Below are positions 13,713 to 53,539 of a stretch of DNA of 64,000 nt, in pieces. The notes beneath the pieces are model-generated. The model was not told the DNA's origin. It searched no databases and saw only the letters and a list, made by a program, of their open reading frames with translations. Position 1 is the first letter of the stretch. Every line of letters begins with the position of its first letter. Source of the stretch: an uncultured Phycisphaerales bacterium (GTDB taxonomy: Bacteria; Planctomycetota; Phycisphaerae; Tepidisphaerales; Tepidisphaeraceae); NCBI GenBank assembly GCA_963755915.1, contig CAVWLP010000002.1, forward strand, positions 3,968,001 through 4,032,000, written 5' to 3'. The position numbers and the translations under genes are program-made.

Positions 13713-13848
13713 AGGGCTGGAAAGCGGAAAGCAGCGCGGGCTAATTCCCATCCGCGAAATCCGTGATCCGGCGCTTTGCGAGAAAGTAGAAGGTGGCGGC
13801 TTTGAGTTGGAGGGCGAGGGAAGTGGAACAAATCGGTGCGCTCGGCTC

Positions 13849-14458: not shown

Positions 14459-14782
14459 ACTTTCGCCTCCGGGACATCGGTGGATGTCGTTAAGAAGTGT
14501 ACCCCCGCGAGTTGTCAGTTGCGAGTCGCCAGTTGCGAGTTGCCGCTGCGAGCGGGCTATCTCCTATTCGCGAAATCCGCGTAATCCGTGGTCCGGCACT
14601 TCGCGAGAAAGTAGAGGTGGAGAAAGTCGAAAGTAGACAGGGCTAATTCCCATCCAGGAAAATGTTACACCCCACGTTTATTGAAAACCAACCAAACCCC
14701 GCGCAACCACCTCCCGCACCCAGACTTAAATCAAAATGAGTTAGCATATACTCACTAATTCGCCGAAAACGTAACAAAACGT

Positions 14783-16273
14783 CATTGCCGTTCGGTACAC
14801 GATTCGCTTGTTGCCGATTCTTGCGCTTGCGCAACGCGCTATGGTATGTCAGCATAGGGGTTGGTGCTGGAACTTCAGATCAAGGATGTTCCGTTTGGGC
14901 TGCTCACTCGCGTGTTGCCGCTGCTGGATCGGCTCCATGAGGTTGGAACCGAGCGCGACACGGCCGGCAATCGACAACTCTTCTTCGACGACTACGTCAA
15001 GCTCGTTCTAGTCTACCTCATCACGCCGATGATCGAATCGATCAGCGGCCTGCAGCGCACCATGGAACTGCCGCGACTGGCCAAACAACTGGGCATCAAG
15101 GATTTTTCCAAAGCCAGTTTCTCAGAGGCGCCCGTGGTCTTCCAGCCGCGGGAGTTGATCCGGGTGATTGAAGAGCTGACCGGCGATTTACACCGGTTGC
15201 CTCGCGATCCGCGACTGGCCGATATCCACCACGCCATCACGCTCGTGGACGGGACGCTGATCAAGGCATTGCCCAGGCTCATCGAGACGCTCTACAACGC
15301 CAAACGGCGTTGTCTCACCCCAGCCCGCTGTACCGGGCAAGAAGCGCCCGACGCCGGGGCTTATCACGCCTGGCGCATTCACACCCTGCTGGACCTGGAC
15401 ACGATGGTTCCGCAACGGGTGCGTCTGACCGGTGGAAGCCCGCGCGGCTCGAACAACGAACGACGCGTGCTGGAGGCGATGCTGGAGCCGGGCCGGCTCT
15501 ACGTCGCCGACCGTGGCTACTTCGACAAGCCGCTGATAAACCGCATCGTCCAGGCCCACAGCCTTTATGTCTTTCGCGCCATCGACGACCTGAAGTACCA
15601 AGTGGTCGAGGAACGCAAGCTCAGTGCCCAGGCGATTGAGGAGGGCGTGATCCGCGACGCGGTGGTGCGGTTGGAAGGCCTGGATCACCCGACGCGGCTG
15701 GTGGTCGTGAAGGCCGAGGTTCATGCCAAACGCACCCGCAAAGGTTACGTCCCCAGCAGCGGACAGATGAGGTTCCTGTGTCCGGACCTGGTACTGGCGC
15801 CGGAGCTGATCTCGATCTTGTATCGCTACCGCTGGACCATCGAGACCTTTTTCAAATTCATGAAACAACTGCTGGGGTGCCGCCATTTACTGAGCCAGCG
15901 CAAGACCGGCGTGGAGATCCAGATCTACTGCGCGGTGATCGTGTGCATGCTGCTGAATCTGACCACCGGGTTGAAGCCGGCCAGGGCCGTCATGGAACGG
16001 ATCATGTGGTATCTGCTGGGCTTTGCCGATGTTCAGGACGTCCAGCGGCAGATTGAAAGAACGCGGCGGGAGCAGGAGGCCCGCGCCAAAAAACGAGGCC
16101 ATTAATTCCGGCTGCGTTCTCGAGTTCGCTGGCCGGCGGTTGATGCTGCGCGCTACTCAACCCCCCATTCGCCCCCGCATCGGTTCTCAAGCAGAATGAT
16201 CTGCCGCATCGCTCCCCCAGCCGAATGGTTGCCGATTTTCCCCTAGCCGCAAACAAAGTACCGAACGACAATG
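14783..16273 (+). mobile_element. IS4-family insertion sequence (element A)
   Basis: IRs cattgccgttcggtac (14783-14798) and gtaccgaacgacaatg (16258-16273), one mismatch; DDE transposase inside. Confidence 0.88.
14861..16105 (+). CDS. IS4-family DDE transposase
   Basis: LVDGT, VADRGY, YRYRWTIETFFKFMKQ (YREK-type motif). Confidence 0.93.
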   Translation: MVLELQIKDVPFGLLTRVLPLLDRLHEVGTERDTAGNRQLFFDDYVKLVLVYLITPMIESISGLQRTMELPRLAKQLGIKDFSKASFSEAPVVFQPRELIRVIEELTGDLHRLPRDPRLADIHHAITLVDGTLIKALPRLIETLYNAKRRCLTPARCTGQEAPDAGAYHAWRIHTLLDLDTMVPQRVRLTGGSPRGSNNERRVLEAMLEPGRLYVADRGYFDKPLINRIVQAHSLYVFRAIDDLKYQVVEERKLSAQAIEEGVIRDAVVRLEGLDHPTRLVVVKAEVHAKRTRKGYVPSSGQMRFLCPDLVLAPELISILYRYRWTIETFFKFMKQLLGCRHLLSQRKTGVEIQIYCAVIVCMLLNLTTGLKPARAVMERIMWYLLGFADVQDVQRQIERTRREQEARAKKRGH

Positions 16274-16296
16274 ACATTATGTAACATCCGCAATAC

Positions 16297-16368
16297 GTAG
16301 GGTGGGTGTACTCGCCCACCATTTTCGGCGATCGGCAGACCAAACGGTGGGCGAGTACGCCCACTTAC
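16297..16368. repeat. GTAG-type REP doublet (REPIN-like hairpin)
   Basis: gtagggtgggtgtactcgcccacc ... ggtgggcgagtacgcccacttac. Confidence 0.8.
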
Positions 16369-16408
16369 GACTAATCCGCCGAAAACGTAAAAAAACGTAA
16401 AATTATGT

Positions 16409-17898
16409 TAATCCCGTTCGGCACGGGGTTCGCGCAAGCAGCAAGATATTGAGATTGCGCCTTTGATCTTTTTATGGCATGCTGCCGGACGTGCAGGCAA
16501 GACTGAAGGAAAAAGAGATCCTGTGCCTCGGACATCTGCGGCGCAGTCTTCGCGCTGCTGCCCACGCTGCGGGATGTGGGCTGTGAGCGGGATCGAGCCG
16601 GGAACCGCCAGCTTCACTTCGACGATTATTGCAAGCTGGTTTTGCTTTACACCTGGAATCCGCTGATCCAATCCCTGCGGGATCTTCAGGAGGTTGCTGA
16701 ACTGCCCAAGGTGGCCAAGGCGCTGGGAATTAAGCGTTTTTCCGTGGGCAGTTTCTCTGAATCGGTTCGGGTGTTCGAGCCGGGGCGTTTGACGCCGCTG
16801 ATTGAGGAATTGGCGGGGGAACTGCCCCAGGCGCCCGATCCGCGTCTTGCGGACTTTGGGCAGGCGATCACGCTGGTCGACGGGACGGTGCTGACGGCGC
16901 TGAGTCGGCTGGCCAAATCCGCTTGCGGCATCGATGCGCACTACAACACCTCCCGGGACGGGAAAGCGGTCTATGGCTGGCGTTTGCACGTTCAATTCGA
17001 TCTGGAGACGTTCAAAGTCCATCGCCTCGACCGCACTGGCGCTCGCAACGCGGGGGCCAACCGTGAAAACAACGTCCTGCGGCGCAGCCTGGAAGCAGGA
17101 CGGTGCTATGTAGGAGACGGCGGCTACGCCGACCGGAGCCTCTTTGCGGACATCGCCGCGGCGCAAAGCTCCTTTGTGATGCGGGCCGCGGAAAACTCGG
17201 TGTTTGAGCTGTTTGAAGAACGATTGCTTTCACAGGAAGCATTGGACGGCGGCGTGGTGCGAGACGCGCTGGTGAAACTCGACGGCCTGGAGACGGCGGC
17301 GGATAGGGTGGTGCGACGGGTGGAAGTGCAGGTGAAACCCCATCCGCGCCGCACGCGCAGCGGCAACAAGCCGACGGACCTGATCATCCTGTACACGAAC
17401 CTGCTGGACCTGCCGGCGGAATTGATCGCCCTGATTTATCTGTACCGCTACACCGTTGAGTTGTTCTTCCGGATCTTCAAGCAACTGCTGGGCATGCGTC
17501 ACCTGCTGAGCCAACGCCAGGAGGGGATCGACATCCAAATCCACTGGCGCTGATCGTCTGCGTGCTGATTCAGCTGATCAGCGGCAGGAAGCCGAACAAG
17601 GCGATGCGGAACATGATCGGCTGGTATCTGCTGGGGCTGGCCGAGGAACAGGACGTGCTTCGATTCCTGAACAAGCCGGATAACACCGGGATTAAGCTGA
17701 GGGCAAGAGCGGAGGCCTTGAAAAAACTGGGAGTAAACTGAAGGGGAATCCGTCGCCGCGGAGACCTCGCGGTTGATGCTGCGCTCTTGCGGACGCCGGC
17801 GTGCAGCAGGGGAAAGTAAAAGTATCTAAGCTTCAATTGTTTCGCGTCCTCCACAGCTTTGGAATGCTCCGATGAAGCCTGCGTGCCGAACGGGATTA
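16409..17898 (+). mobile_element. IS4-family insertion sequence (element B) with 9-bp TSD AAATTATGT
   Basis: Perfect 17-bp IRs taatcccgttcggcacg / cgtgccgaacgggatta; AAATTATGT at 16400-16408 and 17899-17907. Confidence 0.92.
16479..17741 (+). CDS. IS4-family DDE transposase (frameshifts near 16545 and 17546)
   Basis: AGNRQLHFDDY, LVDGT, VGDGGY, YRYTVELFFRIFKQ; homologous to the element A transposase. Confidence 0.88.
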
Positions 17899-18048
17899 AA
17901 ATTATGTAACATCCGCAATACGCGGCAGCCGGAAGCTGCCGGGCGGTACCCCGCAAAACCCTAGGGAGGAAGCCATGCGGTGGCTGGACGCCACCGCGAG
18001 CGGTACCCCGCATGGGCCGGATGCCCGGACCTTATAGCAACCGGAGGA

Positions 18049-38670: not shown

Positions 38671-38889
38671 CGTTTTAAATAACGCCAGACGTTGAAGTAA
38701 CAAAGCTGGCACGCGTGGCATAGAGCTTCCTAAGACGCCAGGAAAAACGGAATCTCCCGTTTTTGCACTTTTCGGAGGCTTGGCCATGCCCAAACTCGTC
38801 TGAAACGCAATTCCTTCTTATCGCCTCCACAAATTAAGTGGGAGAATCCAAACGACATTTGGTAGAAGGTGACGCGGCGGAAATCAATT

Positions 38890-39600
38890 ATGAAACAGAA
38901 GAAATCACCGAAAGGTGGTGCCAGTCGAATTTCATCGCAGCTTTGGCGCGATGACGTCGAGCTATTTCAGCTCGTCGGCAGAGAATTATATACGCCGGTG
39001 GTGGGGGACATTCTCGACGGGCTGAAATATTACCATCAATTCCTGCCACAGCCGGTGCAGCCGATTCGTGAGGGGATGGTTGTGGTGGGGCGGGCGATGC
39101 CGGTGTTAATGATCGACGTTCATGGCCCGCAGAAAAAGCCCTTTGGTCTGATGACGCAAGCACTTGACGATCTGAAACCGGGCGAAGTCTACATCGCGGG
39201 GGGTGGCGACATGCGTTGTGCCTACTGGGGCGAATTGCTGACGGCGACGGCACGCACGCGCGGCGCAGTGGGCGCCGTGTTGGATGGTTTTCATCGGGAT
39301 ACGCCCCAGGTGCTTGGACAAAAATGGCCGGTGTTCAGCCGGGGACGGTATGCCCAGGATTCGTCGGTTCGGACGGCGGTGGCGGATTTTCGCTGTTCGA
39401 TCGAGATCGGCGGCGTCTGGATCGAGCCGGGGGATCTGGTGTTCGGCGATCTGGATGGGGTGGTGACGATTCCACGAGCGGTTGAAAAGGAGGTCATCAC
39501 CAGGGCGCTGGAAAAAGCGCGGGGCGAAAAAGTTGTCCGCAAAGCGATCGAAGGTGGGATGACCGCCACCGCGGCATTCAGGAAGTTTGGGATTCTTTGA
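38890..39600 (+). CDS. RraA-family protein (HMG/CHA aldolase-like)
   Basis: [37 protein letters not shown]. Confidence 0.9.
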
Positions 39601-39612
39601 ACGGAAGGGCCG

Positions 39613-40740
39613 ATGAAAATCACCCGCTTTGAAACCTGGCGATGTCAGCGTAAGGAATCGTTGTTTGATTCAGCGCGGACGGGACGAAGCCCAATGAATT
39701 GGGACGTGGTGGTTTTGCAATTGAAAACGGATACGGGACTGATCGGCCACGCGACGGCGCTGGGGGCGCGCTCGAGCGTGGTAACGCAGGCATATCTTCA
39801 CGAGACGATCGCGCCGGTGGTGATGGGGCGTTCGCCGACAGAGCGCGAGGCGATTTGGCACGAGCTGTGGACGATCGACCGGCATCTGACCTTCTTCCCG
39901 GTTTATCTGCCGGGACCGGTCGATGTGGCATTGTGGGATATCGCGGCCAAGGATGCGGGATTGCCGCTCTATCAGTTCATCGGGGAATGCCGGACGAGCC
40001 TGCCGACGTACGCCAGCAGTTTGTTCATGCCTAGGACCGAGGATTATGTGAAGGAGATGCGAGCTTATCGGGAGCGTGGTTTCCCGGCATACAAGACGCA
40101 TCCCCCGGGTCCGTGGCGGAAAGACATGGAGATTCATCGCGCGCTGCGTGAAGCCTCGGGCGCCGATTATGTGCTGATGTCTGATCCGGTGGGGGAGTAT
40201 TCGCTGGAGGAAGCGATCCGCGTGGGGCGCGATCTGGAGAAGCTCGATTATCTCTGGTTTGAAGAACCCTTTCGCGATTTCGAATTGGCGAAATATGCCA
40301 AGCTTTGCGCGGCGCTCGATATTCCGATCGCGGGAACGGAAACGACGCGCGGGGGGCCGTGGGGCGTCGCGCAGGCCATTGCTTTCAACGCGGTCGATAT
40401 CGTTCGCGCGGATGTTTCGTGGAAGCCGGGCGTGACCGGCGCTTTGAAGATCGCCCATCTGGCCGAGGCAAACGGGATGCGCTGCGAGATCCATTGCACG
40501 ACGATGGGTTTCATGGACATGGCGAATTTGCACGTCAGTTGCGCGATCAAGAATTGCGAATATTTCGAGTTGCTGGTGCCGGAAGAACCGTTTCGGTTTC
40601 CGATGAAGGACAAATATCCGATTGACGCCGCCGGGATGGCGCATGTCCCGCAAAAACCTGGAATTGGCGTAGAACTGGACTGGGATGCGATCGATAAGAC
40701 CTGTGTTGAACATAAGGTCACTGAGCTGAAGTCAGTGTAA
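39613..40740 (+). CDS. Mandelate racemase/enolase superfamily enzyme (probable acid-sugar dehydratase)
   Basis: VDVALWDIAAK, YKTH, LMSD, WFEEP, GTE, PGIGVELDWD. Confidence 0.9.
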   Translation: MKITRFETWRCQRKESLFDSARTGRSPMNWDVVVLQLKTDTGLIGHATALGARSSVVTQAYLHETIAPVVMGRSPTEREAIWHELWTIDRHLTFFPVYLPGPVDVALWDIAAKDAGLPLYQFIGECRTSLPTYASSLFMPRTEDYVKEMRAYRERGFPAYKTHPPGPWRKDMEIHRALREASGADYVLMSDPVGEYSLEEAIRVGRDLEKLDYLWFEEPFRDFELAKYAKLCAALDIPIAGTETTRGGPWGVAQAIAFNAVDIVRADVSWKPGVTGALKIAHLAEANGMRCEIHCTTMGFMDMANLHVSCAIKNCEYFELLVPEEPFRFPMKDKYPIDAAGMAHVPQKPGIGVELDWDAIDKTCVEHKVTELKSV

Positions 40741-40841
40741 TCGCATATAGCCTGAAAAATGCGGAAGACCCCCACCCTAACCCTCCCCCGGAGTACCAGG
40801 GGAGGGGAAAAAGGGTGAGACGCGATTGACTTGGAGATGAA

Positions 40842-41168
40842 ATGAAGCCGCGCTGTTTTCAAATCCATGAGCGGGACAATGTTGCTACAATGATTGGGGA
40901 TGCCATGAATGGCGCGATCGAAGTGATTGGCAAAGACGCCGGAGAGATTGTTGCGGTGGAAAGAATTGCATCCGGGCAGAAGATCGCGCTGCGCGACATC
41001 GCCAAGGACGAGGCGATCGTGAAATTCGGCGTGCGCATCGGTCATGCGACAGCGCCCATCCGCCGTGGGGCATGGGTGCATTTGCACAACCTGGCCAGCG
41101 ATATTGACGAACGTTCCGGGACGCTGGATCTGCATTCCGGAGCGCCAACAGACACGCGATATGAATGA
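40842..41168 (+). CDS. UxaA-family SAF domain subunit
   Basis: [30 protein letters not shown]. Confidence 0.88.
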
Positions 41169-42367
41169 AGCGGTTTCAGTCTGGGAGGGATATGCACGGG
41201 CCGACGGCCGCAAGGGCATTCGCAACCTCGTGCTGATCGTTTACACGGTGGAGTGCGCAGTTTGTGGCCCATGCGATCGCGCAGGGGGAGAGCGACGTGC
41301 ACGTGATCGGGTTTTCGGGTTGCTACGACAATCAGTATGCGATTCGTCTGCTGCTTGCACTGGCGCGGCATCCAAATGTGGGGGCGGTTCTGTCGGTGGG
41401 GCTGGGATGTGAATACACGCAGCCGGAAAAGATCGCCGGGACGGTTCTCGAATCCGGCCGGCCAGCGGAGTGGTTCTTTATTCAAGAGGCGGGGGGGACG
41501 ACGAAGAGCATTGAGCGCGGAAAACAGGCGCTGGCGCGGTTGCGAAATCAGATTGCCACTGTGAAACGCGTGCCGATGACGCTAAGCGATTTAACGGTGG
41601 GATGTGAATGCGGCGGATCGGATGCCACTTCGGGATTGGCCGGTAATCCGGTGGTCGGCGTGTTTTTTGACAAGCTCGTTGATGCGGGTGGACGGGCGGT
41701 GTTCGAAGAGATTGTGGAGATGATCGGATTACGCGATATCCTCGCGGTCCGCGCGGCCAGCGAAGAGGCCCGGGCGCAGTTGACGGCGGCGTATGACAAG
41801 GCGGTGGCCTATTGCCAATCGGTGCGGCAGTTTTCCGCGTCGCCGGGCAATTTCGCGGGGGGGCTGACGACCATCGAGGAAAAGAGCATGGGTGCGTTCG
41901 CCAAGAGCGGCAGCCGGCCGATCCAGGGGGTGATAAAGGTCGGCGAACCTCCGCGAGGGCCGGGTCTTTGGATTATGGACAGCGTGCCCGATCCGCATTT
42001 CATGCAGTTTGGATATACCAATCCGAATGACACGGAAGGGATCATGGACCTGATCTCGTCGGGGGCGCAGATTGTTTTGTTCGTTACCGGGCGGGGGAGC
42101 GTTATCGGGAGCCCGATTGCGCCGTTGATCAAAATTACCGGCAACGACCAAACCTATCGGCGGATGATCGAGGACATGGATTTCAACGCCGGGCCTGTGC
42201 TGAATGGCGAATCTTCGCTGGAGAAAGCGGGTGCGGATTTGCTGTCGTTGGTTACGCGGGTGGCCGCAGGGCAGCCGACCAAACCGGAATCGTTGGGGCA
42301 TCGTGAATATTTTGTGATGTATAAGCATCAGGACACGCCGTCTCTTTTGGCGGGTTGTCGCGCGTAG
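41161..42367 (+). CDS. UxaA/GarD-family dehydratase large subunit (frameshift near 41260)
   Basis: [52 protein letters not shown]. Confidence 0.9.
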
Positions 42368-42386
42368 GGAGATCAACCATTTCCAT

Positions 42387-43155
42387 ATGAATCCAAGCAA
42401 AAGCAGCTTTCGACTGGACGGACAGACAGCGCTGATTACCGGCGGCGGGACGGGATTGGGACTGGGCATCGCGCCTGCCTTGCGGCGCGGGCGCCAAAGT
42501 CGTATTGGTGGGGCGCAGGGAAAAGGAATTAACGCAGGCGGCGTCGAGCATCGGGTCGCAGGCGGCGTTCGTGGCACATGACATCACGCAACTGAATCGT
42601 GCGGGTGAATTGATTTCAGCGGCTGAAGAGGCCGCGGGCGCACCCGTGAACATCCTCATCAACAATGCGGGCATTCATCTGAAGAAATCGGCGACTGAAA
42701 CCAAGCCCGACGAATTCCAGGCGATATTGACCACGCACGTATGTGCCGCCCAGGCGCTGGTGGCGGCGGCATTGCCGGGCATGCTGGAGCGCGGGGAGGG
42801 AAACATCCTGTTTACCGCTTCGATGTCGGCGCTGATCGGCATGCCTTTGCTGGTGGCCTATTCGGCGGCCAAGAGTGCGTACCTTGGGATGGTTCGGGCC
42901 CTGTCGACGGAAGTGGCGGGGCGGGGCGTGCGCGTGAACGCGATCGCACCCGGCTGGATTGAATCGGCGATGCTGCGGCAGGCGCTCAGCGGGGATGCGG
43001 CGCGGATGAATCGGATCCTGCAACGCACGCCGATGGGGCGATTCGGCGAGCCGGAAGATATCGGGAACGCCGCCGTTTTTCTCTGCTCTCCCGCGGCGAA
43101 GTTCATCACGGGGGTGCTGCTTCCGGTGGATGGGGGCGCTAGCGTCGGATTTTGA
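42387..43155 (+). CDS. SDR oxidoreductase (gluconate 5-dehydrogenase-like; frameshift near 42480)
   Basis: [33 protein letters not shown]. Confidence 0.9.
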
Positions 43156-44022
43156 CCGAATGAAGCGCCGTTTCCATGCACTCGCCGGCGATCCGAGCAT
43201 AGATAATTGCTTCGGCGTAGCGGTCGGATTCTTCGACGAGATCTCCGTCGGCAGCAGGAAATTGGCGGGCGTAATAGTGGGTGCTGGGGAGTAATTCCGG
43301 GGCGAAAATCAGGACGTCGCCGGGGGAAGCGTTTTTGAGGAATCCCTGAATTGATCGAGTCCAGAGTGTGCGGAAATGCTGGACGTAATCGACGGCTCCG
43401 CAGGCGCCGACGGCGACCTGTATCGAGCCTGGGTTTGCGATCCGGCCATGGATGAAACCGATGCGATCGAAAATGGGTTGCATAAATGCGAGCTTGCTTT
43501 CCCAATCGCCGTAGACCAATTCCTGTCCGCAATAGTAATGGCTGAAATCGCCGTTGAAGCGAATATCGAGAAATCGGCGGGTTATTTGGACAGTGCGCCA
43601 GAGGTCTTGGGTGATGGTGGCCCGGTGGGTTTCGATGAAGATGGGAAGCCGATGGCGATCAGAGCGCGCAAGACGGCGTCGATAAGGCGATCGACTTCGT
43701 CATCGTTCTCGAGGCCCCAGCCGACGTGGAGCGTGAGGCATTTATCGCCGCGGTCGGCGTGCTTGGCGGCGATGATATCGGCCTGGGCGGGTGTGCTGAC
43801 GCGATCTAAGCCGCAATACGGCAACGACAGCCCGCCGGCGGGAAGGGCGTCGCTGATCAGTTGCACGCCTTCAAATCCGTCGGCGGTGAGGCGCTGGTCC
43901 CGCTGGGGCCCCTCCAGACCGGGCCAGGTCGAATCCTCGCACAGGTCGACGAGGGTGCCGAGATTCAGATAGATGCGCAGCTTGGGCGGGTCATTTGAGC
44001 CGTCGTTCATGAGGCGAGACAT
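43139..44022 (-). CDS. Sugar phosphate isomerase/epimerase-like TIM barrel (frameshifted)
   Basis: Pieces [33 protein letters not shown] across frames. Confidence 0.7.
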
Positions 44023-44030
44023 CGATTCTC

Positions 44031-44850
44031 CTAATCGCGAAGCCCGACCTGGCGCATCAAGCGATCGGTGGATTGATACGCCTCCTCGACCCATTCCACG
44101 ATCTTCTTTGGATCGGGCGAATATTCCAGTTCGATGGAGACCGAACCTTTAATTCCCAGTTCTTTGATTGCCTGGAGGTAGGGGGCGAATTTCACGACCC
44201 CTCGTCCGGGCGGAAGATCGCCGTGGACCTTGCCGTTGCAGTCGCTGATGTGAACGTGAATCGCCTTGCCTTTGAGTTTAACCAGTTCTTCCGGGCCGGC
44301 GTCGGCGAGCACGAGATGGCTTACGTCGATGTTGGCGCAGGCGCGGATGGTTGCACTCATTGACGAACCGCTCCATCTCGCCCACGCTGTTGAGAAGGCT
44401 GAGGCGGAAGGGTTCGAGTTCCAGGGCGATATCGATTCCTTTCCCGTCGGCGTAATCGCCGATGCGGCGGCAAGTCTCGATCGCCCAGCCCCATTGCGCT
44501 TCCGGGGGGATTACTTCGCGCTGCCAGATGTATTCTCCCAATACGAGCAGCACATTCCGGGCTTGCAGATCGGCGGCGAGATCGACGTGGCGCTTGACGC
44601 GATCGACGTGATACGCGCGCACCGGATCGTTGAAATCCACCAGTCCCGTGGAGACGACGACGCAGGAAACGATGGGGAGACCGGCTTTGCCGCACGTGTC
44701 GGCGATCAGCCGTTTTTCTTCCGGCGAAATCGTGGTCGCTTCGGCGAAAATATCGACGGTGTCGAACCCGATGCGGGCAATGTGCCGCAGCCCCGTCGCG
44801 GTGTCGACGCCGGCCTGGCCGAATGCGCTATTGATGATTCCAAGTTTCAC
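44031..44850 (-). CDS. Sugar phosphate isomerase/epimerase (xylose-isomerase-like TIM barrel; frameshift near 44345)
   Basis: IALELEP, ANIDVSH, HVHISDC, SIELE. Confidence 0.85.
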
Positions 44851-44873
44851 GGAATGCCTCCTGAAGAAAGGGG

Positions 44874-45956
44874 TTAAACGTCGAACTCGCTGAGCACGAC
44901 GAGGCGTCCCTCGGCGGCGCTGCGGTAGGCGGCTTCGACCAGGGCCATGGTTTGCAAGTTGTCGCGTCCGCTGACGGCCGGCTCGTCTTTGGTCTCCAGC
45001 GCGATGAGCAATTGGGCCATGGTGCCGGCGAAGGCGTCGGGAAACCAACTTCCGTGCAGGTTGGCCGTGGTGAAGGCGGTGTCGCCTCGCTTGGCGTAAC
45101 GAAGCGTGCTCGGCGAGGTGTAGGGGTCTTTGCACCAGCCGATGTCACCCATGGCCAGGCCGTCGGTTCCTTCGACGCGGTATCGAATGCCGATGTCGGC
45201 GGGACATCCTTCGCGTGCGGGACCGGTCCAGATGTCGTCGATGCCGATGCAGCGCATGCCGTCTTGATACTCGAGCGTGTAGACGCAGAGGCCGTCGCTA
45301 TGCGGGAATTTTGTTCGCGGATCGGGCCGGGTGCTGCAGAAAATCCGCGCGGGGTCGCCGAACCAGTAGCGCAGGCAATCGAGATGGTGTATGGACATGA
45401 TTCGCAGCGTCACCCAGCCCAGCTCCCTTTGCCAGTCCTGAAAGTGGGGAATGGCCCGCATGTCGATGGATGCGAAAACCGGCTTGCCGAGCACACCGGA
45501 CTTGATGAGCCGATTGGTTTCGCGCACGGACGGGTCGTAGCGCATGTTCTGGTTGACGGCCAGGACAATTCCCGCATCGCGGCAAAGATCGACGGCGCGT
45601 TGCGCTTCATCAAAATTCACGCCGAGCGGCTTCTGGGCGAGAATTCCTTTGGCAGTCCGTTTCTGGCAGGCCGTGCGGATCAAGGCAAATTGGGCCTGGG
45701 GCGGCACGGCGATGTCCAGCACTTCGATGGAAGCGTCGTTCAGCAATTGCTCATAGGTGTCGTGGACGGTGGCAATCTGGTGGCGCTGGGCGGCGCGAGT
45801 GGCGTTGGCCCGCGTGCGCGAGGCGATGACCACGGGATTCAGCCCCGCCTTCCGATAGGAACTGAGGTGACACTCGTTGACGATAAACCCGCTGCCGAGA
45901 ACGCCGATTCGGAAATCGCGTCGGTTCGGCATCGGCCAGTGAGTTGCGTCTTGCAT
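44874..45956 (-). CDS. Gfo/Idh/MocA-family oxidoreductase
   Basis: IGVLGSGFI, LAQKPL, NQNMRY, MSIHHLD. Confidence 0.93.
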   Translation of the reverse strand: MQDATHWPMPNRRDFRIGVLGSGFIVNECHLSSYRKAGLNPVVIASRTRANATRAAQRHQIATVHDTYEQLLNDASIEVLDIAVPPQAQFALIRTACQKRTAKGILAQKPLGVNFDEAQRAVDLCRDAGIVLAVNQNMRYDPSVRETNRLIKSGVLGKPVFASIDMRAIPHFQDWQRELGWVTLRIMSIHHLDCLRYWFGDPARIFCSTRPDPRTKFPHSDGLCVYTLEYQDGMRCIGIDDIWTGPAREGCPADIGIRYRVEGTDGLAMGDIGWCKDPYTSPSTLRYAKRGDTAFTTANLHGSWFPDAFAGTMAQLLIALETKDEPAVSGRDNLQTMALVEAAYRSAAEGRLVVLSEFDV

Positions 45957-45964
45957 TGGGTCGC

Positions 45965-48267
45965 TCAGAATTCGTCAAACGCGATGCGACTGTCGGGCAC
46001 GCCCAGTCCTGCGAGCATCCGCATGCAGGCCTTGACCATCATGGGAGGGCCGCACAAGTAATATTCGATCCGGGTTGGATCAGCGTGTTGCTTCAGATAT
46101 TCGGTCTCCACAACCTCGTGAATGAAGCCGGCGTGGCCTGTCCAACGATCTTCGGGCAGCGGCGACGACAGGGCGAGATGGAATGTGAAGTTCGAGTGTG
46201 CCGCGGCGAGGGCCGCAAAGTAGTCATCGTAAAAGATTTCCTGGCGAGAGCGGGCTCCATACCAGAAGCCGATCCGACGCGCGGTGCCCTCGGTTTCGAG
46301 GTGATGGGAAAGATGTGCCCGCAGGGCGCCATGCCGGAGCCGCCGCCGATATAGATCATTTCGCGCTGCGTGGGCTTCACGTGGAAGTCGCCGAACGGAC
46401 CGATGGCAGTCACGATATCGCCGGGCTGAAGGCTGAACATATAGGCGGAACCGATGCCGGGCGGACAGTCCTGCCCAGGCGGAGGCGTGGCGATGCGGAC
46501 GTTGAATCGGAGGAGATTCGGCTCTGTCCTTGCGTTGCTGGCCAGCGAGTAGTTGTTGCGGCGCGGCGCACCGCCGGGATTGCGGGCGACGAGATCAAAT
46601 ACGTGCTGGCGTTCCCATACGTCCGCGTAGGGCTGCGGAATATCGAAACTTCGGAAAGGGATTTGTTCATACCCTGGAATATCGAACTGAAGATAATCGC
46701 CGGGCTGAAAATCGAGGGCATCGCAACCTGGAGCGGGCTCGAGGACCAGCTCGCGGATGAAAGTGGAGACGCTGCGGGTGCTGACGACCCGGAGGTTAAG
46801 AGTTTGTGACTGCCGGGCGGCGGCCGCGCCACCAGCACGAATAAGATTGATCCACACACGGCCGCCGCGTTCTTCGACCGGATAAGTGGCCAGTCCGCGG
46901 CAAACAGGCGGGCGGGCAGGCGAGCCGTCGGCAAGATTGAATCGCCCGTTATGCTTGGCGCATTCGATCTGAGTGCCTTTGACCAGCCCGGCGGACAGAT
47001 GCGTATTGCCGTGCGTGCACATGCCGTCCGTCGCATAGAGCTTGCCCTCGGCGTCGCGATAGAGGGCGTAGGTCTTTCGGGCATGGTCGAAGCGGATGAC
47101 ATCGGCGCGGTTCAGTTGGAGGGCGGGACAGACTTCCAACCATCCATCAGCGTCGGCCTGCTGCTCGGACGCCAAGCCGGGTTCGGCCGACCTTGACTTG
47201 GGTTCAGCCAGCTTGCGCTTGACGTAATAGGCGGGATCCCTGGTCTGCCGAAGCACCGCGGAAATGATTTCCCGCCAGGCCTGCAGGAGACCGTTGTATG
47301 GAGTCGGCATGTCGTCCTTTACGGCCTCGTGCAGTGCGGGCAGCGCATGGTAGGGGACCAGCGGGAACATGTGGTGCTCAACATGGTAGTTCATGTTCCA
47401 GTACAGATACCGGTGAATCGGGTTCATGTAGACGGTTCGACAGTTCAGCCGATGGTCGAGCACGTTTTCGGCCAGCCCGGCGTGCTGGGTAAGACCGTAG
47501 GTCATCAGGAGCCAAGTGCCGAACAGGGTGGGCAGGCCGATGAACATCAAGGGCAAAATGCTGCGCGTAACAACTGCAAGCACGATTACCGAAATGTAAA
47601 TTGCCAGATAAAGGCGTGCCCGCCAGAAAACCTTGTGGAACTCGCTGGCGGGGATGAAAGTTTTTTCAGCCGGGGACATCCTGCCGAACGTGTGCCGAAA
47701 GATGGCCGTGAAGTAGGGCGGGTAAAGCTTGACGCCGAGAAAGGTGAGAATAATTCCGCGCAAATTCGGCGGGCGTGGGACCGCGATCTCCGGGTCGCGC
47801 CCGACGATGATCGTATCGCTGTGGTGACGGGTATGACTCCAGCGCCAGACCGTCGATTCGCGAAGCACCATGAACGACGCGATCTCGTAGAGCGTGTTGT
47901 TCATCCAATCGGTCTTGAAAGCGGTGCCGTGACCGGATTCGTGCCATCGCGAATCGCTGGTCGATGCGTAGAGCACCGCGTACACCAGGTAGGGGAGCGC
48001 CGCCCAGGGTCTTGGCCAAAGCCGATACGTTAGCCAGCCGAAGCCGAAGATCAGCGCGAACCAGATGATCGTGTCGCGGATGGCGGGCCCGTCGCGGCGC
48101 TGGAGCAGCTTGCGCATGGTCGCGCGCGGTACGGGAGTTTGATACCAGTCTGCCTCTGCGAGTCCGCGCTCGATGGCGTGGGCCGTGGTCTCGCCGGTGA
48201 GGCTGTAGTCGAGTTTTTCCGGCGGACGAGTCAGTACGGCGACGCCGTGTTCCTGGTCAAGATCCAT
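45965..48267 (-). CDS. MocD-like di-iron desaturase/hydroxylase + MocE-like Rieske ferredoxin + NqrF-like FAD/NAD reductase fusion (frameshift near 46325)
   Basis: His boxes HESGH, HTRHH, HVEHH; Rieske CTH...CAKH; RNNYSLAS, NVRIATPP, GPFGDF, IGGGSGMAP. After adding one C the frame reads FWYGARS...YLCGPP...FDEF*. Confidence 0.88.
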
Positions 48268-48282
48268 TACGCACTCCCGCGC

Positions 48283-49338
48283 TCAGAAAGTGGTAAACGC
48301 GTATTCGGTAACCTGCCTGCGGTTTTGGCCGGGGCGGAGAATAATGTTCCCAAGCTCGGGCACGTTTGCGCCGTCGGGATACCCCTCGCATTCCAGGCAT
48401 AGCCCGGCGAATTGTCCATAAGGCCGGCCCGATTTTCCAATCAACGTGCCGTCCAGGCGCACGCCGGTATAAAACTGGAGGCAATCCTCGGTGGTGCTTA
48501 CGGTCAATCTCCGGCCGCTAAGCGGCTCGGAGAGCCGGGCGCAGGTTCTTAATCTTGAATTGGGTGAAGGCTCGACGAAATAGAGGTCGCCGTGCCGGTC
48601 ATATAAGCTCGGAACGACATCGCCAAGCCGCCTGGGCTGGCGCAGGTCGGCGGGCCGGCCCGCGACCGATGTTTTGTCTCCAAGCAGCGTAAAGGCCGAG
48701 TCCACCGCGGCGGTATGGCTGGAGAATATCTGCAGCTCATGTCCGTCGATTGTGCCGGATCCCTCGCCGGCGAGATTGAAATAAGAATGCTGCGTAAGGC
48801 TGAAAGGGGTGGCGCGGTCGGCCGTGGCTTCGACTTCGACGACCAGGCGATTGCCCGGGGTGACGGTATACGTCACGGACACGGAGAGGTTGCCGGGATA
48901 GCCGGCCTCGCCATCGGGGCTGACGCGGAAAAGACGGAGGGAGGCGGCGCCGTCCGTCCGACGGACCGGGGCTGCGTTCCAGACTTGTTTGTCGAATCCC
49001 CTGCTTCCGCCATGCAAATGATTCGGGGGATCGTTGCGCTCAAGGTTGTAGGTGGTACCGTCGATCTCGAATCGTGCCCGCGAAATCCTGCCGGCGACGC
49101 GCCCCGCCATGGCGCCGAAAAACGGGTGCGGCTCGAGGTAACTGCTCAACCGCTCGAACCCCAGCACGACGTCATCCAACTGGCCATGGCGATCGGGCGC
49201 GAACAGGTGCGTGATGATGCCCCCCAGGGTGATTACTCGCGCACGGAGGCCGCCCGCACTCTGCAAGGTGAAAGAATCAATTTGCTCTCCCGTGGGCAAA
49301 GACCCCAACTCACATTTGTCGAGCAATTCCGCGGGCAT
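48283..49338 (-). CDS. galM: Aldose 1-epimerase (mutarotase)
   Basis: GRVAGRI, NHLHGG, GYPGNL, TQHSYFNL, GLCLE. Confidence 0.93.
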   Translation of the reverse strand: MPAELLDKCELGSLPTGEQIDSFTLQSAGGLRARVITLGGIITHLFAPDRHGQLDDVVLGFERLSSYLEPHPFFGAMAGRVAGRISRARFEIDGTTYNLERNDPPNHLHGGSRGFDKQVWNAAPVRRTDGAASLRLFRVSPDGEAGYPGNLSVSVTYTVTPGNRLVVEVEATADRATPFSLTQHSYFNLAGEGSGTIDGHELQIFSSHTAAVDSAFTLLGDKTSVAGRPADLRQPRRLGDVVPSLYDRHGDLYFVEPSPNSRLRTCARLSEPLSGRRLTVSTTEDCLQFYTGVRLDGTLIGKSGRPYGQFAGLCLECEGYPDGANVPELGNIILRPGQNRRQVTEYAFTTF

Positions 49339-49429
49339 CTTGTCGTTTTCGCGCCGCCGGCGCGGGCCGCCTGCGCGACCGCCTCGGTCGCCGGGGCGCT
49401 AAGTAATGAATCTCCCAACCAGAAACAAC

Positions 49430-52400
49430 TCACCGGCAATTCGTCGAGTGTTTCCTGCGCTGCCGGCGTGACAACGCGGTGACAGTGCCCAGAGCGAGCA
49501 GTCCGATGGATGCCGGTTCCGGCACCGCGGCGATCGTCGGCGCTGGCAGGCCGTTGGCCGCCGCGAAGGCATCCAGCGCGGCCACGTCTGCGGGCGTAAC
49601 CGTCACGGCAGCGCCGCTATCGCCCTGGCCGAAGTTCGCCGCCAAGGCGCTGAAGTCGGAGCCGTTGACCGAACTGCCATACAGGAAGTTCCCCTGGTCC
49701 CAGTTGGTGACGCCGAGGCCGAAGTTGGCGGCCAGGATCGAGAAGTCGGAGCCGTTGACGGTGCCGTCGAGATTGGCGTCGCCGACCAGCGTGTACTTCA
49801 ATTCGATTTCGCCACTGGTGAGGTTTTTCACGGCCCCGGTTTTGTCGTTTCCGTCGGCCCAGCCGATGCTGTAGGTCAAGCCGTTGGTTTTGGTCTGGGC
49901 GGCGGACGAGATGATTCCAGAGGTCCCGTTCCAGGCGCCGTTGTTGAAGCCGGATTTGAGGTAACCCAGGATGGTGGAGACCGGGTCGGTGGCGCCGTAG
50001 TCGATGATCACGTGGTTATTGGAGATGTCCAGAACGCTGTTGGCGGCAATGGTCAGCGAGGAGACGTTGATATTGCTGACGGGATTGGTGGCGGTCCAGC
50101 CGCTGCTGGCAGTCGTGTTGCTCGCAAGCACGACGTTTCCACCGTTGATGGCCAGGCTGCTGGCGGTCAGACCGACGCCGAGGGTCAGGGTGCTGGTGCC
50201 GGTCTTGGTGAATCCGCCGGTGGCGACGATGAGCCCGCCGCCGGTGATGGAGTAATTGCCCGAGCTGTTCACCAGCACTGAGGCGGGGCTGACGGTGCTG
50301 CTGAGGGTCACAAAGTAGTGACCGGCGTTGGTGTCGTTGAAGGTGACGGCATCGCCGTTTGCATAGGTTGTGGCGGCGGAGCCGCTGTTCCAGTTCTTAT
50401 TGTTGTTGATGTCCCAGGTTTGGCCATCATCCGGCGTGCTGGAACCGAGGTTGTCCCAGTAGACCGAGGCCGGTCCGGTGGCGACAACCACCAAGTCGAT
50501 GAATCCGATCTGGGCGGTGGTGCTGAGGGAGTAAGTATCGCCGGCCTGGGTGGGGAGGACGAAATTGGCGAGGGTGGGCGTTCCAAAGGAACCTTCGAAG
50601 AGCTCGTAGTCGCCGGAGGCAGTGGGATTGGTTCCGAAGGCGAGGTGGGTGCCGGAGGCGACGGAGAGGGTTCCACCGCCAAGGATGTCGATGAGATCGC
50701 CGGTGTAAGAGTTGGAGACGACGGGAGCGCCGAGGTCGAAGTCGAAAGTGGTGTTGCTGGTGGTGGTGATGGCGCCGGCGTTGAGGAGGCCGATGGATCC
50801 AACCCCGCCGGGGGCGATGGCGTTAGCGCCGGAGCCGGCGACGACAGTGCCCGTGACGGTTCCGGCCGCGGTGCTGGCGAGCGTTCCGCCGTTGAGGGCG
50901 ACGTTGCCGGTTCCGGTGGCGGAGCCGACGGAGCCATTGCCGGCGGAGAGGGTGCCAGCGTTGACAGTGGTGCCGCCGGAATAGGTGTTGTTACCAGCGA
51001 GGACCCAGGTTCCCGGTCCGGTTTTGTTGACGCTGAGCTTTCCGGTGGCGGAGTCGGTGAGTTGGGCGGAGAGGGTGTTCAGGCCGGTGTTGGTGCCGGT
51101 GAGGGTGAGGGTGCGGTTTTGATTGGTGAAGGTGAGGTTGTCGCCAATGCTGGTGGTGCTGATGTTGTTGTTGATGTAGAAGCCGTTGCTGGAGACGCCG
51201 ACGATCGTTGAATTTGCGGGGAAGGCGCCTAGGGAATCGTTGACGGTCATGCCGATCGCCAGAAGATTCGAGTTGAAACCCGAGGGCAGCGGGATGAAGT
51301 TGAATGGAGGGCCGTTGTCGGGATCCTCCGCGATCGTATCGTTGGTCATCTGCCCCTGCTCGACCTGAGCGATCGCGCCGGTGTTGGTGAAATCAACAGC
51401 GCCGGTGCCGGAGGCGTCGAGCGTGGCGCCAACGGGAGTCATGGTGAAAAGGCGATCGGTGGTAGATCCGGCGCCGGTGTATTGGAGGACACCCCCGCTG
51501 ATGACGAGGTTGGCGGCGGAGTTTGAGGCGGAGCCGATTCCGCTGCCGGTCATGGCGCCGCCGTTGGCCAGTTGGTTGACGGAGAGGGTCGTGGTTTCAA
51601 AAGCGCCCTGGGGCGCGGTGAAATCGTTGTTGGCGGCGCGGGTTTGATCGGTGAGGACGTAAACACCCTGGATGGTGGTGACGCCGCCGTAATTGTTGGA
51701 GCCCTCAAGCTGGACGGCTCCGCCGTTGGTGACGACCAGTGCGTTGCCGGCGCCCGCGATCGCATTGCCACCGGAATTGGGGATCGTGAGTGTGCCACCG
51801 CCGCCAAGGCGATAGGTGCTGTTGGCGGGGGTAATGGTTCCGGTGTAAGTGACGCCGGCATTGTCGGAGCCGACGCTCATGCTGGCGAGATTGGCAAGGG
51901 TGCCGGCGGTGAAATTGAGAGTCGCGGCGGCGTCGAGAGTTCCCAGAGCGAGGGCGCCGGTGTTGGCGGTGCTGGAGGCGGCTATGAGTCCGAGGAAGGT
52001 GGAGTCGGTGGTGCCCGCGGTTGCAGCCGCATTTGAGTCGAGTGCGACGGCGCCGCCGGCGTTGACGGTGATAGAGGAGGTTCCCGCGCTGCCGCCGGTC
52101 TGTTTGCCATAGGAGCCGGGGGCGGCGAATTCGAGCAAACCACCGTCGACGGTGGTCGCGCCGTTGAAGGTGCTGGTGGTTCCGTCTAGGAGAACGACGC
52201 CGGTGCCGTTTTTGGTTAACGGCGCGCTGACGGAAGTATCATCGCTGTAGCTGTTGAAGATGCCCCCGTTGACGACGGTCATGCCGGAACCGTCAAACAC
52301 CCACGTTCTGCTGGGACTGTTAGTGGTAGGTTGGGCATAGATATTTCCGTTGATGGTGAGGGTCTTGCCAGCGGGAAGGAGATTGACGATCTCGCGGTTG

Positions 52401-53539
52401 GTGGTTTGATACACGTACCCGTTGATGGCGAGGGAGTGCTGCCCCTCGATGGTAAGGAACTGTGTGACATCGATGCCGTTGTTGATTTCGATGGAATCGT
52501 TGGCGGATTCGAGGTTATAGCCGAATTCATTGGCCGAGCCACCGAGGCGGACTTCGCCCTGTGATTGGACGGCGGAGCCCGCGGGCTGGATTCCGAAGGC
52601 CTGGTCGTTACCGACGATGACGGTGGCCATGTTGAGCGTGGTGATTCCGGTGTAGGTGCTGGCGCCGTTGAGCTCGATGGTCGGGGTGATGGCCGGATAG
52701 ACGCTGGTCTTGGTGGGGTTGCTGTAACCAAGAGAGACATCGCTGTCGCCGACGGCGCCGTCGGCGATGGCGCCGTTGATGATGGTGGTGCTGCCGGTTA
52801 CGCCGTCGATCGTGAAGGACTGAGCGGTTGCAGAGGCGGCATTGGTAATGGTGATGGGGCCGTTGATCGTCAACGTATTGCTGCCGGACATGAGGTTGGC
52901 GATGGCGGCCGAGATGCCGCTGGCTTGCGAGATGGGGCCATTGAGAATGACGCTGTTGGTGCTGGAGGGGTCGATGGCGAGGCTGGTGAATATTGCGGTT
53001 TGCACAGGGCCGATAGGAGGAACGCTGTTGACAACGCCGGTGGAGTTGAGGTCGTAGTTGCCATCGGACCCGCTACGGCTGTTCAGAGTTTGAGTCGAAA
53101 AGCTGTTTTGATCGAGTTCGATGGGAGCGCTGACGATGTTGGTGCTGCCTGGCGCGCCAAGACTAAAGATGTCGGCATAGGCGCCGGCGGCTGGAGTACC
53201 GCCGTCGAAGACGATTAATCCCCCGCCGCTGTTGCTGTTGCCCACGTCGGTGGTGACCGGACTGCTGGTGGAACCCAGTTTCATGTCGTTCACGTAGTAC
53301 GTGCCGGTGGGGATATCAATCGAAAGATTGGAAGAGAGCGCGACGTTGAGATTGGCGGAATCTCCAGCTCCGACGGCGCCGCTTGGGGAGCCTGTAGGGC
53401 TCCAATCGGCCGTGTTGGTCCAAGTCTGAACTCCACCGCTGAGATCCGTCCAGGTATAGCTGGTGGCAGCGTGAACGGCAGGACCGACAAAAGAGACAGC
53501 CGCGGCGGCGGCTAATACGACTCGCTTCGACTTCCGCAT
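49430..53539 (-). CDS. Large secreted PEP-CTERM protein with autotransporter-associated beta-strand repeats and a dockerin-like domain
   Basis: Signal peptide, repeats like KTGPGTWVLAGNNTYSGGTTVNAGTL, GDANLDGTVNGSDF, VPEP-hydrophobic-RRQRR. Confidence 0.92.
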   Translation of the reverse strand: MRKSKRVVLAAAAAVSFVGPAVHAATSYTWTDLSGGVQTWTNTADWSPTGSPSGAVGAGDSANLNVALSSNLSIDIPTGTYYVNDMKLGSTSSPVTTDVGNSNSGGGLIVFDGGTPAAGAYADIFSLGAPGSTNIVSAPIELDQNSFSTQTLNSRSGSDGNYDLNSTGVVNSVPPIGPVQTAIFTSLAIDPSSTNSVILNGPISQASGISAAIANLMSGSNTLTINGPITITNAASATAQSFTIDGVTGSTTIINGAIADGAVGDSDVSLGYSNPTKTSVYPAITPTIELNGASTYTGITTLNMATVIVGNDQAFGIQPAGSAVQSQGEVRLGGSANEFGYNLESANDSIEINNGIDVTQFLTIEGQHSLAINGYVYQTTNREIVNLLPAGKTLTINGNIYAQPTTNSPSRTWVFDGSGMTVVNGGIFNSYSDDTSVSAPLTKNGTGVVLLDGTTSTFNGATTVDGGLLEFAAPGSYGKQTGGSAGTSSITVNAGGAVALDSNAAATAGTTDSTFLGLIAASSTANTGALALGTLDAAATLNFTAGTLANLASMSVGSDNAGVTYTGTITPANSTYRLGGGGTLTIPNSGGNAIAGAGNALVVTNGGAVQLEGSNNYGGVTTIQGVYVLTDQTRAANNDFTAPQGAFETTTLSVNQLANGGAMTGSGIGSASNSAANLVISGGVLQYTGAGSTTDRLFTMTPVGATLDASGTGAVDFTNTGAIAQVEQGQMTNDTIAEDPDNGPPFNFIPLPSGFNSNLLAIGMTVNDSLGAFPANSTIVGVSSNGFYINNNISTTSIGDNLTFTNQNRTLTLTGTNTGLNTLSAQLTDSATGKLSVNKTGPGTWVLAGNNTYSGGTTVNAGTLSAGNGSVGSATGTGNVALNGGTLASTAAGTVTGTVVAGSGANAIAPGGVGSIGLLNAGAITTTSNTTFDFDLGAPVVSNSYTGDLIDILGGGTLSVASGTHLAFGTNPTASGDYELFEGSFGTPTLANFVLPTQAGDTYSLSTTAQIGFIDLVVVATGPASVYWDNLGSSTPDDGQTWDINNNKNWNSGSAATTYANGDAVTFNDTNAGHYFVTLSSTVSPASVLVNSSGNYSITGGGLIVATGGFTKTGTSTLTLGVGLTASSLAINGGNVVLASNTTASSGWTATNPVSNINVSSLTIAANSVLDISNNHVIIDYGATDPVSTILGYLKSGFNNGAWNGTSGIISSAAQTKTNGLTYSIGWADGNDKTGAVKNLTSGEIELKYTLVGDANLDGTVNGSDFSILAANFGLGVTNWDQGNFLYGSSVNGSDFSALAANFGQGDSGAAVTVTPADVAALDAFAAANGLPAPTIAAVPEPASIGLLALGTVTALSRRQRRKHSTNCR

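Follow-up and report, generated by a model that had tools for sequence, protein, structure and literature searches.

We report that the window, i.e. the whole stretch of DNA analysed here (64,000 nucleotides; positions 3,968,001 to 4,032,000 of contig CAVWLP010000002.1, assembly GCA_963755915.1, from an uncultured Phycisphaerales bacterium), encodes a putative self-sufficient oxygenase in which a membrane di-iron domain, a Rieske ferredoxin domain and an NqrF-like reductase are joined in one gene, hereafter the fusion. Its open reading frame (ORF) lies on the minus strand between 48267, where the ATG starts, and 45965 (TGA stop, 45967-45965). Translation of the ORF and comparison with Pfam and TIGRFAM profiles place FA_desaturase (amino acids [aa] 88-323, E 2e-32; Pfam), Rieske (aa 376-463, E 6e-16; Pfam) and the FAD part of an NqrF-like reductase (TIGR01941, aa 492-654) in a single frame with zero stops, as an earlier note made from the sequence alone had claimed. 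Directly after the motif GGGSGMAP, at approximately position 46324, the frame changes and the NAD-binding remainder continues in the next frame to the TGA at 45965. All five motifs named in that note were located, NVRIATPP (aa 589) and GPFGDF (aa 623) in the first frame and FWYGARS, GFIHEV and YLCGPP, together with a terminal FDEF-stop, in the second. The host genome (G000) comprises 6.6 Mb in 3 contigs and is 81% complete and 8% contaminated.

Table 1. Domains of the fusion and its same-strand neighbours. L098, rhizopine-type locus of Rhizobium leguminosarum A1; P0001, closest homologue among the matches listed; X1, X5 and X6, sequencing runs; 81 loci, the 80 best GTDB loci plus the window.
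Feature	Position in window	Strand	Evidence and remarks
Membrane di-iron (His-box) oxygenase domain, MocD-like, aa 1-352	47212..48267	-	PF00487, motifs, 54% identity to MocD of L098
Rieske [2Fe-2S] ferredoxin domain, MocE-like, aa 376-474	46846..47142	-	PF00355, 51% identity to MocE of L098
NqrF-type FAD-binding domain and start of NAD(P)-binding domain, aa 492-648 (RNNYS, NVRIATPP, GPFGDF, GGGSGMAP)	46324..46794	-	TIGR01941, PDB NqrF E 1e-33, fold match
One-base shortfall inside reductase, frame shift	46323..46326	-	Contig and homologue comparison
Remaining NAD(P)-binding domain (FWYGARS, GFIHEV, YLCGPP, FDEF), next frame	45965..46323	-	PF00175 E 2e-10; 97% to P0001 aa 649-767
Aldose 1-epimerase (GalM-like mutarotase)	48283..49338	-	PF01263 E 8e-71; 15 nt upstream of fusion
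Gfo/Idh/MocA dehydrogenase	44874..45956	-	8 nt downstream of fusion; 28% identity to MocA of L098, below IolG cut-off; cluster in 7/81 loci
AP_endonuc_2 TIM barrel, ketose 3-epimerase-like	44031..44850	-	PF01261; frame break at ~44334 filled in X1, X5 and X6; 6/81 loci
Pfam-less TIM-barrel protein	43139..44022	-	Weak AsbF dehydratase match, E 4e-6; frame break at ~43663 filled in X1, X5 and X6

The ligand motifs of the di-iron and Rieske domains are conserved. The di-iron domain carries the three His boxes WHESGH (H109, H113), HTRHH (H145, H148, H149) and NYHVEHH (H295, H298, H299) together with TQHAG (H262), i.e. the at least eight His ligands expected of the membrane His-box di-iron superfamily, and these are invariant across 40 aligned members; the Rieske ligands are C417, H419, C436 and H439. 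A protein homologue search, in which 3709 of 8000 scored candidates pass E 0.001, shows that the architecture is common. Specifically, 120/120 homologues among the matches listed are intact three-domain chains of 757-799 aa, all with the Rieske pattern CxH-x16-CxxH, the first two His boxes and DSRWH, while the QH and third His-box patterns are found in 113. The closest of them, P0001 (767 aa), is intact and 93% identical to the fusion, and the close homologues include Tepidisphaeraceae and Phycisphaerae records.

In GTDB, at least 596 relatives were found among at least 600 pattern matches. The 80 best-scoring of these, which come from Verrucomicrobiota, Acidobacteriota, Bacteroidota, Chloroflexota, Planctomycetota and one betaproteobacterium, have a single ORF in 79 cases (the scoring favours intact copies), the exception being L005, broken in the reductase. 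Hence, the combination of FA_desaturase, Rieske and FAD/NAD domains predicted from the window is real and present in six phyla. The gene is patchy among the closer kin, being full-length in 4 of 61 relatives (G000, G001, G019 and G030; G014 enters only the denominators of the 61-relative counts), and a scan of 201 genomes from the phylum detected the fusion pattern solely in G190 and G000. Cultured carriers include Oleiharenicola lentus (L066) and Sunxiuqinia indica (L049). Full-text literature searching, with most subscription journals and all supplements outside its scope, gave no description of this three-domain protein. The host genome also has an isolated Rieske fragment (G000:C2:94502-94663), 62-65% identical to the Rieske domain of the fusion and adjoining an ORF that reads as PhyH-like by sequence; perhaps it is a remnant of a second copy.

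The frame change was examined using contigs from four sequencing runs aligned to window positions 43000-49400; X5 and X6 derive from other studies and X1 may be the source sample of the window. A 653-nt X1 contig spans 45924-46575, 652 bases of the window, and differs by 1 gap and no substitution, that is, by one extra base located within this span. The relatives in X5 and X6 (approximately 91% alike) likewise have one extra base behind 46324, with one X5 contig spanning the entire gene, and in tblastn the intact P0001 matches at 93% up to aa 648 and, in the following frame, at 97% from aa 649 to aa 767. Moreover, one X1 contig (46583-47140) crosses the Rieske/reductase junction and one X2 contig (47099-47296) the di-iron/Rieske junction, both with no indel and no substitution. 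The frameshift is thus confined to the reductase with both domain junctions in frame, as had been proposed, and the stops between domains that the earlier note thought polishing might introduce do not appear in these independent contigs.

The copy in the window might nevertheless be a real pseudogene, or be decoded by programmed frameshifting, given that G001, another species of the same genus (90.7% nucleotide identity), has the same one-base shortfall at the same site. We regard this as very unlikely in view of the substitution-free X1 contig that is one base longer across the site and the intact P0001. G001 also shares the breaks at 43663 and 44334 in two neighbouring genes, where it shows no indel against the window, and X1, X5 and X6 contigs fill both. 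Since breaks common to the two genomes are filled in this way, the shortfall near 46324 most likely stems from a systematic long-read error in reading or assembly. The clustering of small indel sites near GCGC (7/12 against a background of 9.5%) fits such an error; position 46324 itself lies two bases from a GCGC, just outside the window used by the script. Other frameshifts in G000 deserve suspicion as well, since the breaks at 43663, 44334 and 46324 and one in L149 are common to two long-read assemblies from different species and are all filled by other contigs.

The reductase part superposes on Klebsiella NqrF (7qty) with Z 39.9, a root mean square deviation (rmsd) of 1.2 Å and 48% identity, the next family having Z 27.7. 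The TIGR01941 match covers only profile positions 131-403 of 405. The first 130 positions correspond to the membrane anchor and the 2Fe-2S domain of NqrF, so the suggestion of an NqrF-type FAD/NAD module without the N-terminal part of NqrF agrees with both profile and fold. Intact fusions still exceed the NqrF model cut-off (310 versus 295 bits; 302-348 bits in 5/5 genomes), which is why many database records are named NqrF, and these intact copies are mislabelled; genomes can thereby seem to hold a sodium pump subunit.

Taken literally, these labels and the profile scores would make the fusion an unusual subunit F of the Na+-pumping NADH:quinone reductase, for which we see next to no chance. 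The profile match is limited as described above, and no nqr cluster was found among the recurring or adjacent neighbours of the fusion loci, while NqrF belongs to an nqr operon. A separate full-length NqrF is kept in 3/5 tested fusion genomes and is lacking in 2/5; the host genome has no full NqrF, and its sole NqrB/RnfD-family match is on another contig. Furthermore, in a quick reductase tree (28 fusions, 34 NqrF and 8 other reductases; long branches for L145, L141, L090 and L096), built as the earlier note had proposed, the fusion reductases form one clade of their own (97) that joins NqrF (SH-aLRT 98) against other FNR-type reductases. By this quick tree, the clade may sit either inside or beside NqrF. 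The best 120 matches in a search for stand-alone relatives of the reductase were only fragments of the same fusion family.

The fusion and NqrF also differ in RNNYS versus RAYS and in the residue following 'ALS', which is D or E in 18/19 NqrF sequences with the pattern matched (14 of 33 were unmatched) and S in 96/120 fusions. By the rules of the FNR family, with this Ser the donor may be NADH or NADPH. Accordingly, of the recruited NADH-to-di-iron chain originally envisaged, the NqrF-like module stands, while NADH as the donor is not established, and the same applies to the direction of recruitment (fusion or fission; recruited from NqrF or sister to it).

The other two domains resemble proteins of the rhizopine system. 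P0001 is 54% and 51% identical to MocD and MocE, respectively, of L098 (R. leguminosarum A1 plasmid pRLa11), a locus with iolE, a Gfo dehydrogenase, a sugar-binding protein, a PLP-dependent regulator, a desaturase, a Rieske protein and a FAD oxidoreductase. We read L098 as rhizopine-type because this gene order fits mocC, mocA, mocB, mocR and mocDEF, the layout given in passages of PMC10107442; the moc names of its genes were assigned here on that basis. The di-iron domain has the same His boxes, and DSRWHE at the first of them, as MocD of the rhizopine system, which is known from R. leguminosarum and Sinorhizobium meliloti L5-30, and of the unfused mocDEF-like operons, and the order D then E is retained. 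With the MocE-type model TIGR02377 the scores are 109.7 and 112.5 bits against a cut-off of 136, which is set for the free protein. The kinship to MocD and MocE asserted earlier therefore holds and MocF has been replaced, there being no similarity between P0001 and MocF of L098 (best E 0.44).

There are 289 records of plasmids or chromids, most of them from rhizobia, with a stand-alone di-iron relative of about 55% identity, and unfused mocDEF-like operons are also found in Burkholderia, Paenibacillus and Pseudomonas syringae. In a quick di-iron tree the unfused proteins are nested among the fusions, but a tree forcing the fusions together is not rejected (approximately unbiased test, p-AU 0.62) and has the higher likelihood, with two long branches as outgroup; we draw no conclusion from the di-iron trees about fusion versus fission. 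A distant, unfused MocD-like subfamily (30-36% identity, INGFHE in place of DSRWHE) is represented by G000:C3:1509478-1510257, L087 and L088, and in G000 the gene is followed by an ORF that by sequence reads as aldolase-like.

An AF2 model of the di-iron domain (pLDDT 82, pTM 0.81) matches 8xks_K (Z 16.7, rmsd 3.6, 282 aligned), AlkB 8sbb (Z 9.7, rmsd 4.9, 260 aligned) and SCD1 4ymk (Z 5.5, rmsd 5.7, 201 aligned), the next match having Z 3.5. The full-length model (pTM 0.56) gives no support for docking of the domains within the chain. This fold, shared with desaturase-like proteins, AlkB and SCD1, together with the FA_desaturase label given by both Pfam and ESM Atlas, could point to an enzyme that desaturates or hydroxylates lipids and has its own electron supply. 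Such a role is highly improbable: only the general Pfam model PF00487 passes its threshold (DesB reaches 40.5 bits against a cut-off of 500), the polar DSR immediately preceding box 1 is present in 120/120 of the homologues listed, no lipid-synthesis cluster recurs among the neighbours, and the genome has a separate, distant desaturase-family gene (C3:1361180, 22% identity). No AlkB family model is among the 16 NCBIfam matches at E ≤ 0.001; the fold is related to that of AlkB, with 15% identity in the structural alignment.

The gene neighbourhood was analysed for 81 loci using gene calls from our own ORF scorer, which can miss genes. In the window the GalM mutarotase, the fusion, the Gfo dehydrogenase, the ketose 3-epimerase-like barrel and the Pfam-less barrel form a tight same-strand run and may be co-transcribed; a sigma-70 promoter scan gave 0 sites versus 2.0 expected, and terminators were at chance level. 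L001 and L046 have the same five genes, with a RhaT-like transporter gene next to them in both. The intact relative of the AP_endonuc_2 barrel in L066 matches D-tagatose/psicose 3-epimerases at E 1e-10, and the Pfam-less barrel, present in 29/81 loci (34 counting a related cluster), has a metal-type set of motifs (E-x-H-R, D-x-S-H, H-x-R and P-E) and a weak AsbF/IolE resemblance; the Gfo and TIM-barrel neighbours, when searched against PDB and Atlas, had no matches other than distant and non-specific ones. Across the loci, GalM is the commonest neighbour of the family (within 10 kb in 31/81, directly adjacent in 28/81) and any mutarotase, GalM or RhaM, is found in 37/81. AraC regulators are present in 23/81, sugar porters in 15/81 and rha-type genes in 13/81, and glycoside hydrolases (GH) are among the adjacent singletons.

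On the plus strand, a convergent sugar-acid cluster (38869-43155) encodes an RraA/HMG-aldolase-like protein, a mandelate-racemase-family dehydratase, a SAF and UxaA/GarD-like dehydratase and a short-chain dehydrogenase/reductase. It is syntenic in G001, its dehydratase is 37.5% identical to one beside an unfused Paenibacillus mocDEF, and it may receive what the oxygenase operon produces. The mutarotase gene is closely preceded, again on the minus strand (49430-53539), by a gene encoding a PEP-CTERM protein of 1369 aa that contains a passenger-associated transport repeat.

These neighbours bear on the substrate. The same chemistry with an O-methylated inositol or inosamine as substrate (pinitol, 3-O-methyl-scyllo-inosamine), which is what has been put forward for rhizobial MocD, would be in keeping with the identity and motifs shared with MocD, and unfused mocDE(F) is near iolG or iolC in two of 7 chosen annotated loci. 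Moreover, the Gfo dehydrogenase and TIM barrels behind the fusion parallel the presence of MocA and MocC with mocDEF, and mocDEF homologues rise in pinitol-rich root exudate, according to the part of PMC5789663 consulted. We consider such a substrate quite unlikely for the fusion. Neither IolE/MocC nor IolC gave a match, and IolD none over its cut-off, in the ORFs of 80 fusion loci or in the host genome (81% complete), the Gfo dehydrogenase of the window is just 28% identical to MocA, and mutarotases, the commonest neighbours, act on aldoses and not on cyclitols. Rhizopine loci carry mocA, mocB, mocC and mocR, whereas fusion loci have aldose mutarotases and sugar porters and no iol genes (mocB and mocR were not searched for). 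The aldose epimerase directly upstream of an unfused mocDEF in an unannotated Paenibacillus locus may be noted in this context. Hence, the fusion would work like MocDEF without being a member of the rhizopine system, to judge from its different reductase, of FNR/NqrF type and unrelated to MocF, and the lack of an iol link.

Three kinds of one-carbon (C1) related genes recur near the fusion or its unfused relatives. First, a glutathione-independent formaldehyde dehydrogenase over the TIGR02819 cut-off is encoded immediately downstream of the fusion in L011 and, in L029, at a distance of two genes. The host genome has such an fdhA gene (751 bits), far from the fusion, and fdhA is present in 3/4 fusion-bearing and 6/57 other relatives, a weak result as kin are not independent. 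Second, in 6/7 hand-chosen annotated loci the unfused mocDE(F) genes are followed by a PanB-like hydroxymethyltransferase, PurU or both. The PanB-like protein is divergent (L081, L098, L101, L102 and L103; in L098 it is below the panB cut-off) and is possibly a formaldehyde-capturing enzyme. Third, a full set of MtaB-like, corrinoid, RACo, DUF1638 and URO-D/MtaA-like genes is present in 5/81 loci, in differing gene orders and in both Verrucomicrobiota and Acidobacteriota; in L064 and L079 the fusion sits inside the MtaB-corrinoid run, and URO-D/MtaA-like genes occur in 13/81 loci.

Corrinoid genes were also seen elsewhere. Metagenome contigs related to a Verrucomicrobiota copy (L150-L229) have a conserved set of MtaB-like, corrinoid, RACo, DUF1638, AraC and URO-D genes, often beside sugar porters, TonB receptors, GH78 and PurU, which suggests that corrinoid-dependent sugar demethylation is not confined to methanogens and acetogens. 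In L146 of the host genome (G000:C2:2654000-2672000, positions 3392-18001), a GH115 alpha-glucuronidase gene precedes URO-D-like, corrinoid, RACo and homocysteine S-methyltransferase-like genes, and these make a candidate corrinoid O-demethylase acting on xylan-derived 4-O-methyl-glucuronate. Another lead, Bacteroides BT0340-0343, was dropped as it yielded only a label, corrinoid methyltransferase proteins, in the passage of PMC8941943 concerned.

The sugar context, strong yet varied between loci, would also suit another oxidative step on a sugar-like substrate, such as C-hydroxylation, N-demethylation or cleavage of a different ether or alkyl glycoside. The superfamily includes hydroxylases of polar substrates (an NCBIfam profile search gave a weak GntB match, E 1e-5), and PMC5132102, as far as its available text goes, assigns no settled role to a Pseudomonas mocDEF beside xylose isomerase. 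This is an unlikely alternative, since the three separate C1-related neighbour types best fit the loss of a methyl group.

Together, the data argue that the fusion is probably a single-chain enzyme that uses O2 to demethylate an O-methylated monosaccharide; the substrate is most likely a reducing aldose set free from glycans of plants, mosses or algae. We infer demethylation and substrate from MocD kinship and the three kinds of C1-related neighbours, and the mutarotases together with the missing iol genes favour an aldose. NAD(P)H would reduce FAD in the NqrF-type domain, from which electrons would move singly via the tethered Rieske cluster to the His-ligated di-iron centre of the membrane domain. 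This centre would activate O2 and hydroxylate the O-CH3 group, and the resulting hemiacetal would break down to free sugar and formaldehyde. The co-located mutarotase may supply or remove the right anomer. Further conversion of the product is probably the task of the dehydrogenase and both TIM-barrel enzymes, and the formaldehyde dehydrogenase encoded elsewhere in the genome could remove the formaldehyde. The O-demethylase or hydroxylase activity proposed in the earlier note thus gains contextual support from formaldehyde dehydrogenase, corrinoid methyltransferase and PanB-like/PurU neighbours, while of its suggested substrates, methylated sugars and inositols, the neighbours favour an aldose over the inositols.

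Several observations weigh against this assignment. The role of MocDEF as an oxygenase demethylating 3-O-methyl-scyllo-inosamine is taken from statements in later papers (e.g. a passage of PMC13434037, citing Bahar 1998) and not from the original 1998 data, and no assayed member of the fusion family was found in the literature. Membrane residence of the di-iron domain is suggested by family and fold, with hydropathy giving partial agreement, as the scan flags just aa 172-190 and 212-256, part of the expected helices. The 80 GTDB loci are enriched in related Acidobacteriaceae and Opitutaceae. With respect to C1 metabolism, the formaldehyde dehydrogenase link is rare (2/81 loci), the fusion-bearing relative G019 (89% complete) is without fdhA, and neither PanB-like proteins nor PurU were found in the 81 fusion loci. 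In the reverse test, the fusion was present in 2/80 MtaB-like metagenome loci (2/40 at ≥10 kb), both with RhaM; the link between MtaB and the fusion is real but not obligatory. Finally, the host genome (81% complete) has no MtaB, RhaA, Fae, Mch, HxlA or FrmA over threshold, and consequently the substrate of this copy is not pinned down. Fae and Mch belong to the tetrahydromethanopterin-dependent formaldehyde route and HxlA to the ribulose monophosphate route, while FrmA is glutathione-dependent.

The rhamnose-type genes point to 3-O-methyl-rhamnose for a subset of the loci, and, RhaA being absent from the host genome, the copy in the window may serve another sugar or a non-phosphorylative route. 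A broader scenario, tentative and in our judgement doubtful as a whole, is that bacteria of soil and peat rely chiefly on this family when they demethylate 3-O-methyl-L-rhamnose and other O-methylated deoxy-sugars aerobically, and that in some lineages the fusion shares one operon with an MtaB-like corrinoid methyltransferase set that takes off or captures the same methyl group without oxygen, i.e. a redox-switchable demethylation module. This rests on L079, L068, L172 and L201, where L079 combines rhaA, rhaT, rhaM, rhaB-like, AraC, URO-D, fusion, TIM barrel, DUF1638, RACo, corrinoid and MtaB genes, on the rha-type genes and the RhaT-like transporters in L001 and L046, and on the GH78 rhamnosidase beside 5 of 80 MtaB-like metagenome loci (PurU is in 7). 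Acofriose (3-O-methyl-L-rhamnose) makes up 11.9% of the neutral sugars in the Sphagnum arabinogalactan-protein fraction, as given in a passage of PMC6918356.

Methylated sugars resist microbial breakdown, and the sole sugar O-demethylase met in our literature searching is a cytochrome P450 of marine Bacteroidota that converts 6-O-methyl-D-galactose with release of formaldehyde (PMC6292453, in the sections available). If the proposed function is correct, a one-gene enzyme in hundreds of genomes and at least six phyla would provide bacteria of soil and peat with the missing step, MocD-type chemistry could be assayed without rebuilding a three-protein chain, and the fusion could serve as a self-sufficient biocatalyst for selective sugar demethylation. 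The reaction type, O2-dependent sugar O-demethylation yielding formaldehyde, would be the same as for the P450, which, to the extent described in that source, is a soluble heme enzyme with a separate ferredoxin and reductase and a fold unrelated to the fusion. The principle of self-sufficiency is already known from ferr_ferrR_AlkB, a natural three-domain ferredoxin-reductase/ferredoxin/AlkB alkane hydroxylase described, in the part of PMC8918992 accessible, as active and mis-annotated in databases; the combination and arrangement of domains seen here, with a Rieske cluster and a reductase of NqrF type, were not met in our literature searching. Both are membrane di-iron monooxygenases, the fusion so by prediction, with both electron-transfer partners fused, but the partners are N-terminal in ferr_ferrR_AlkB, which acts on alkanes, and C-terminal in the fusion, which carries a Rieske cluster. 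Compared with the rhizopine system, finally, what is there divided among the three proteins MocD, MocE and MocF is here encoded as one chain.

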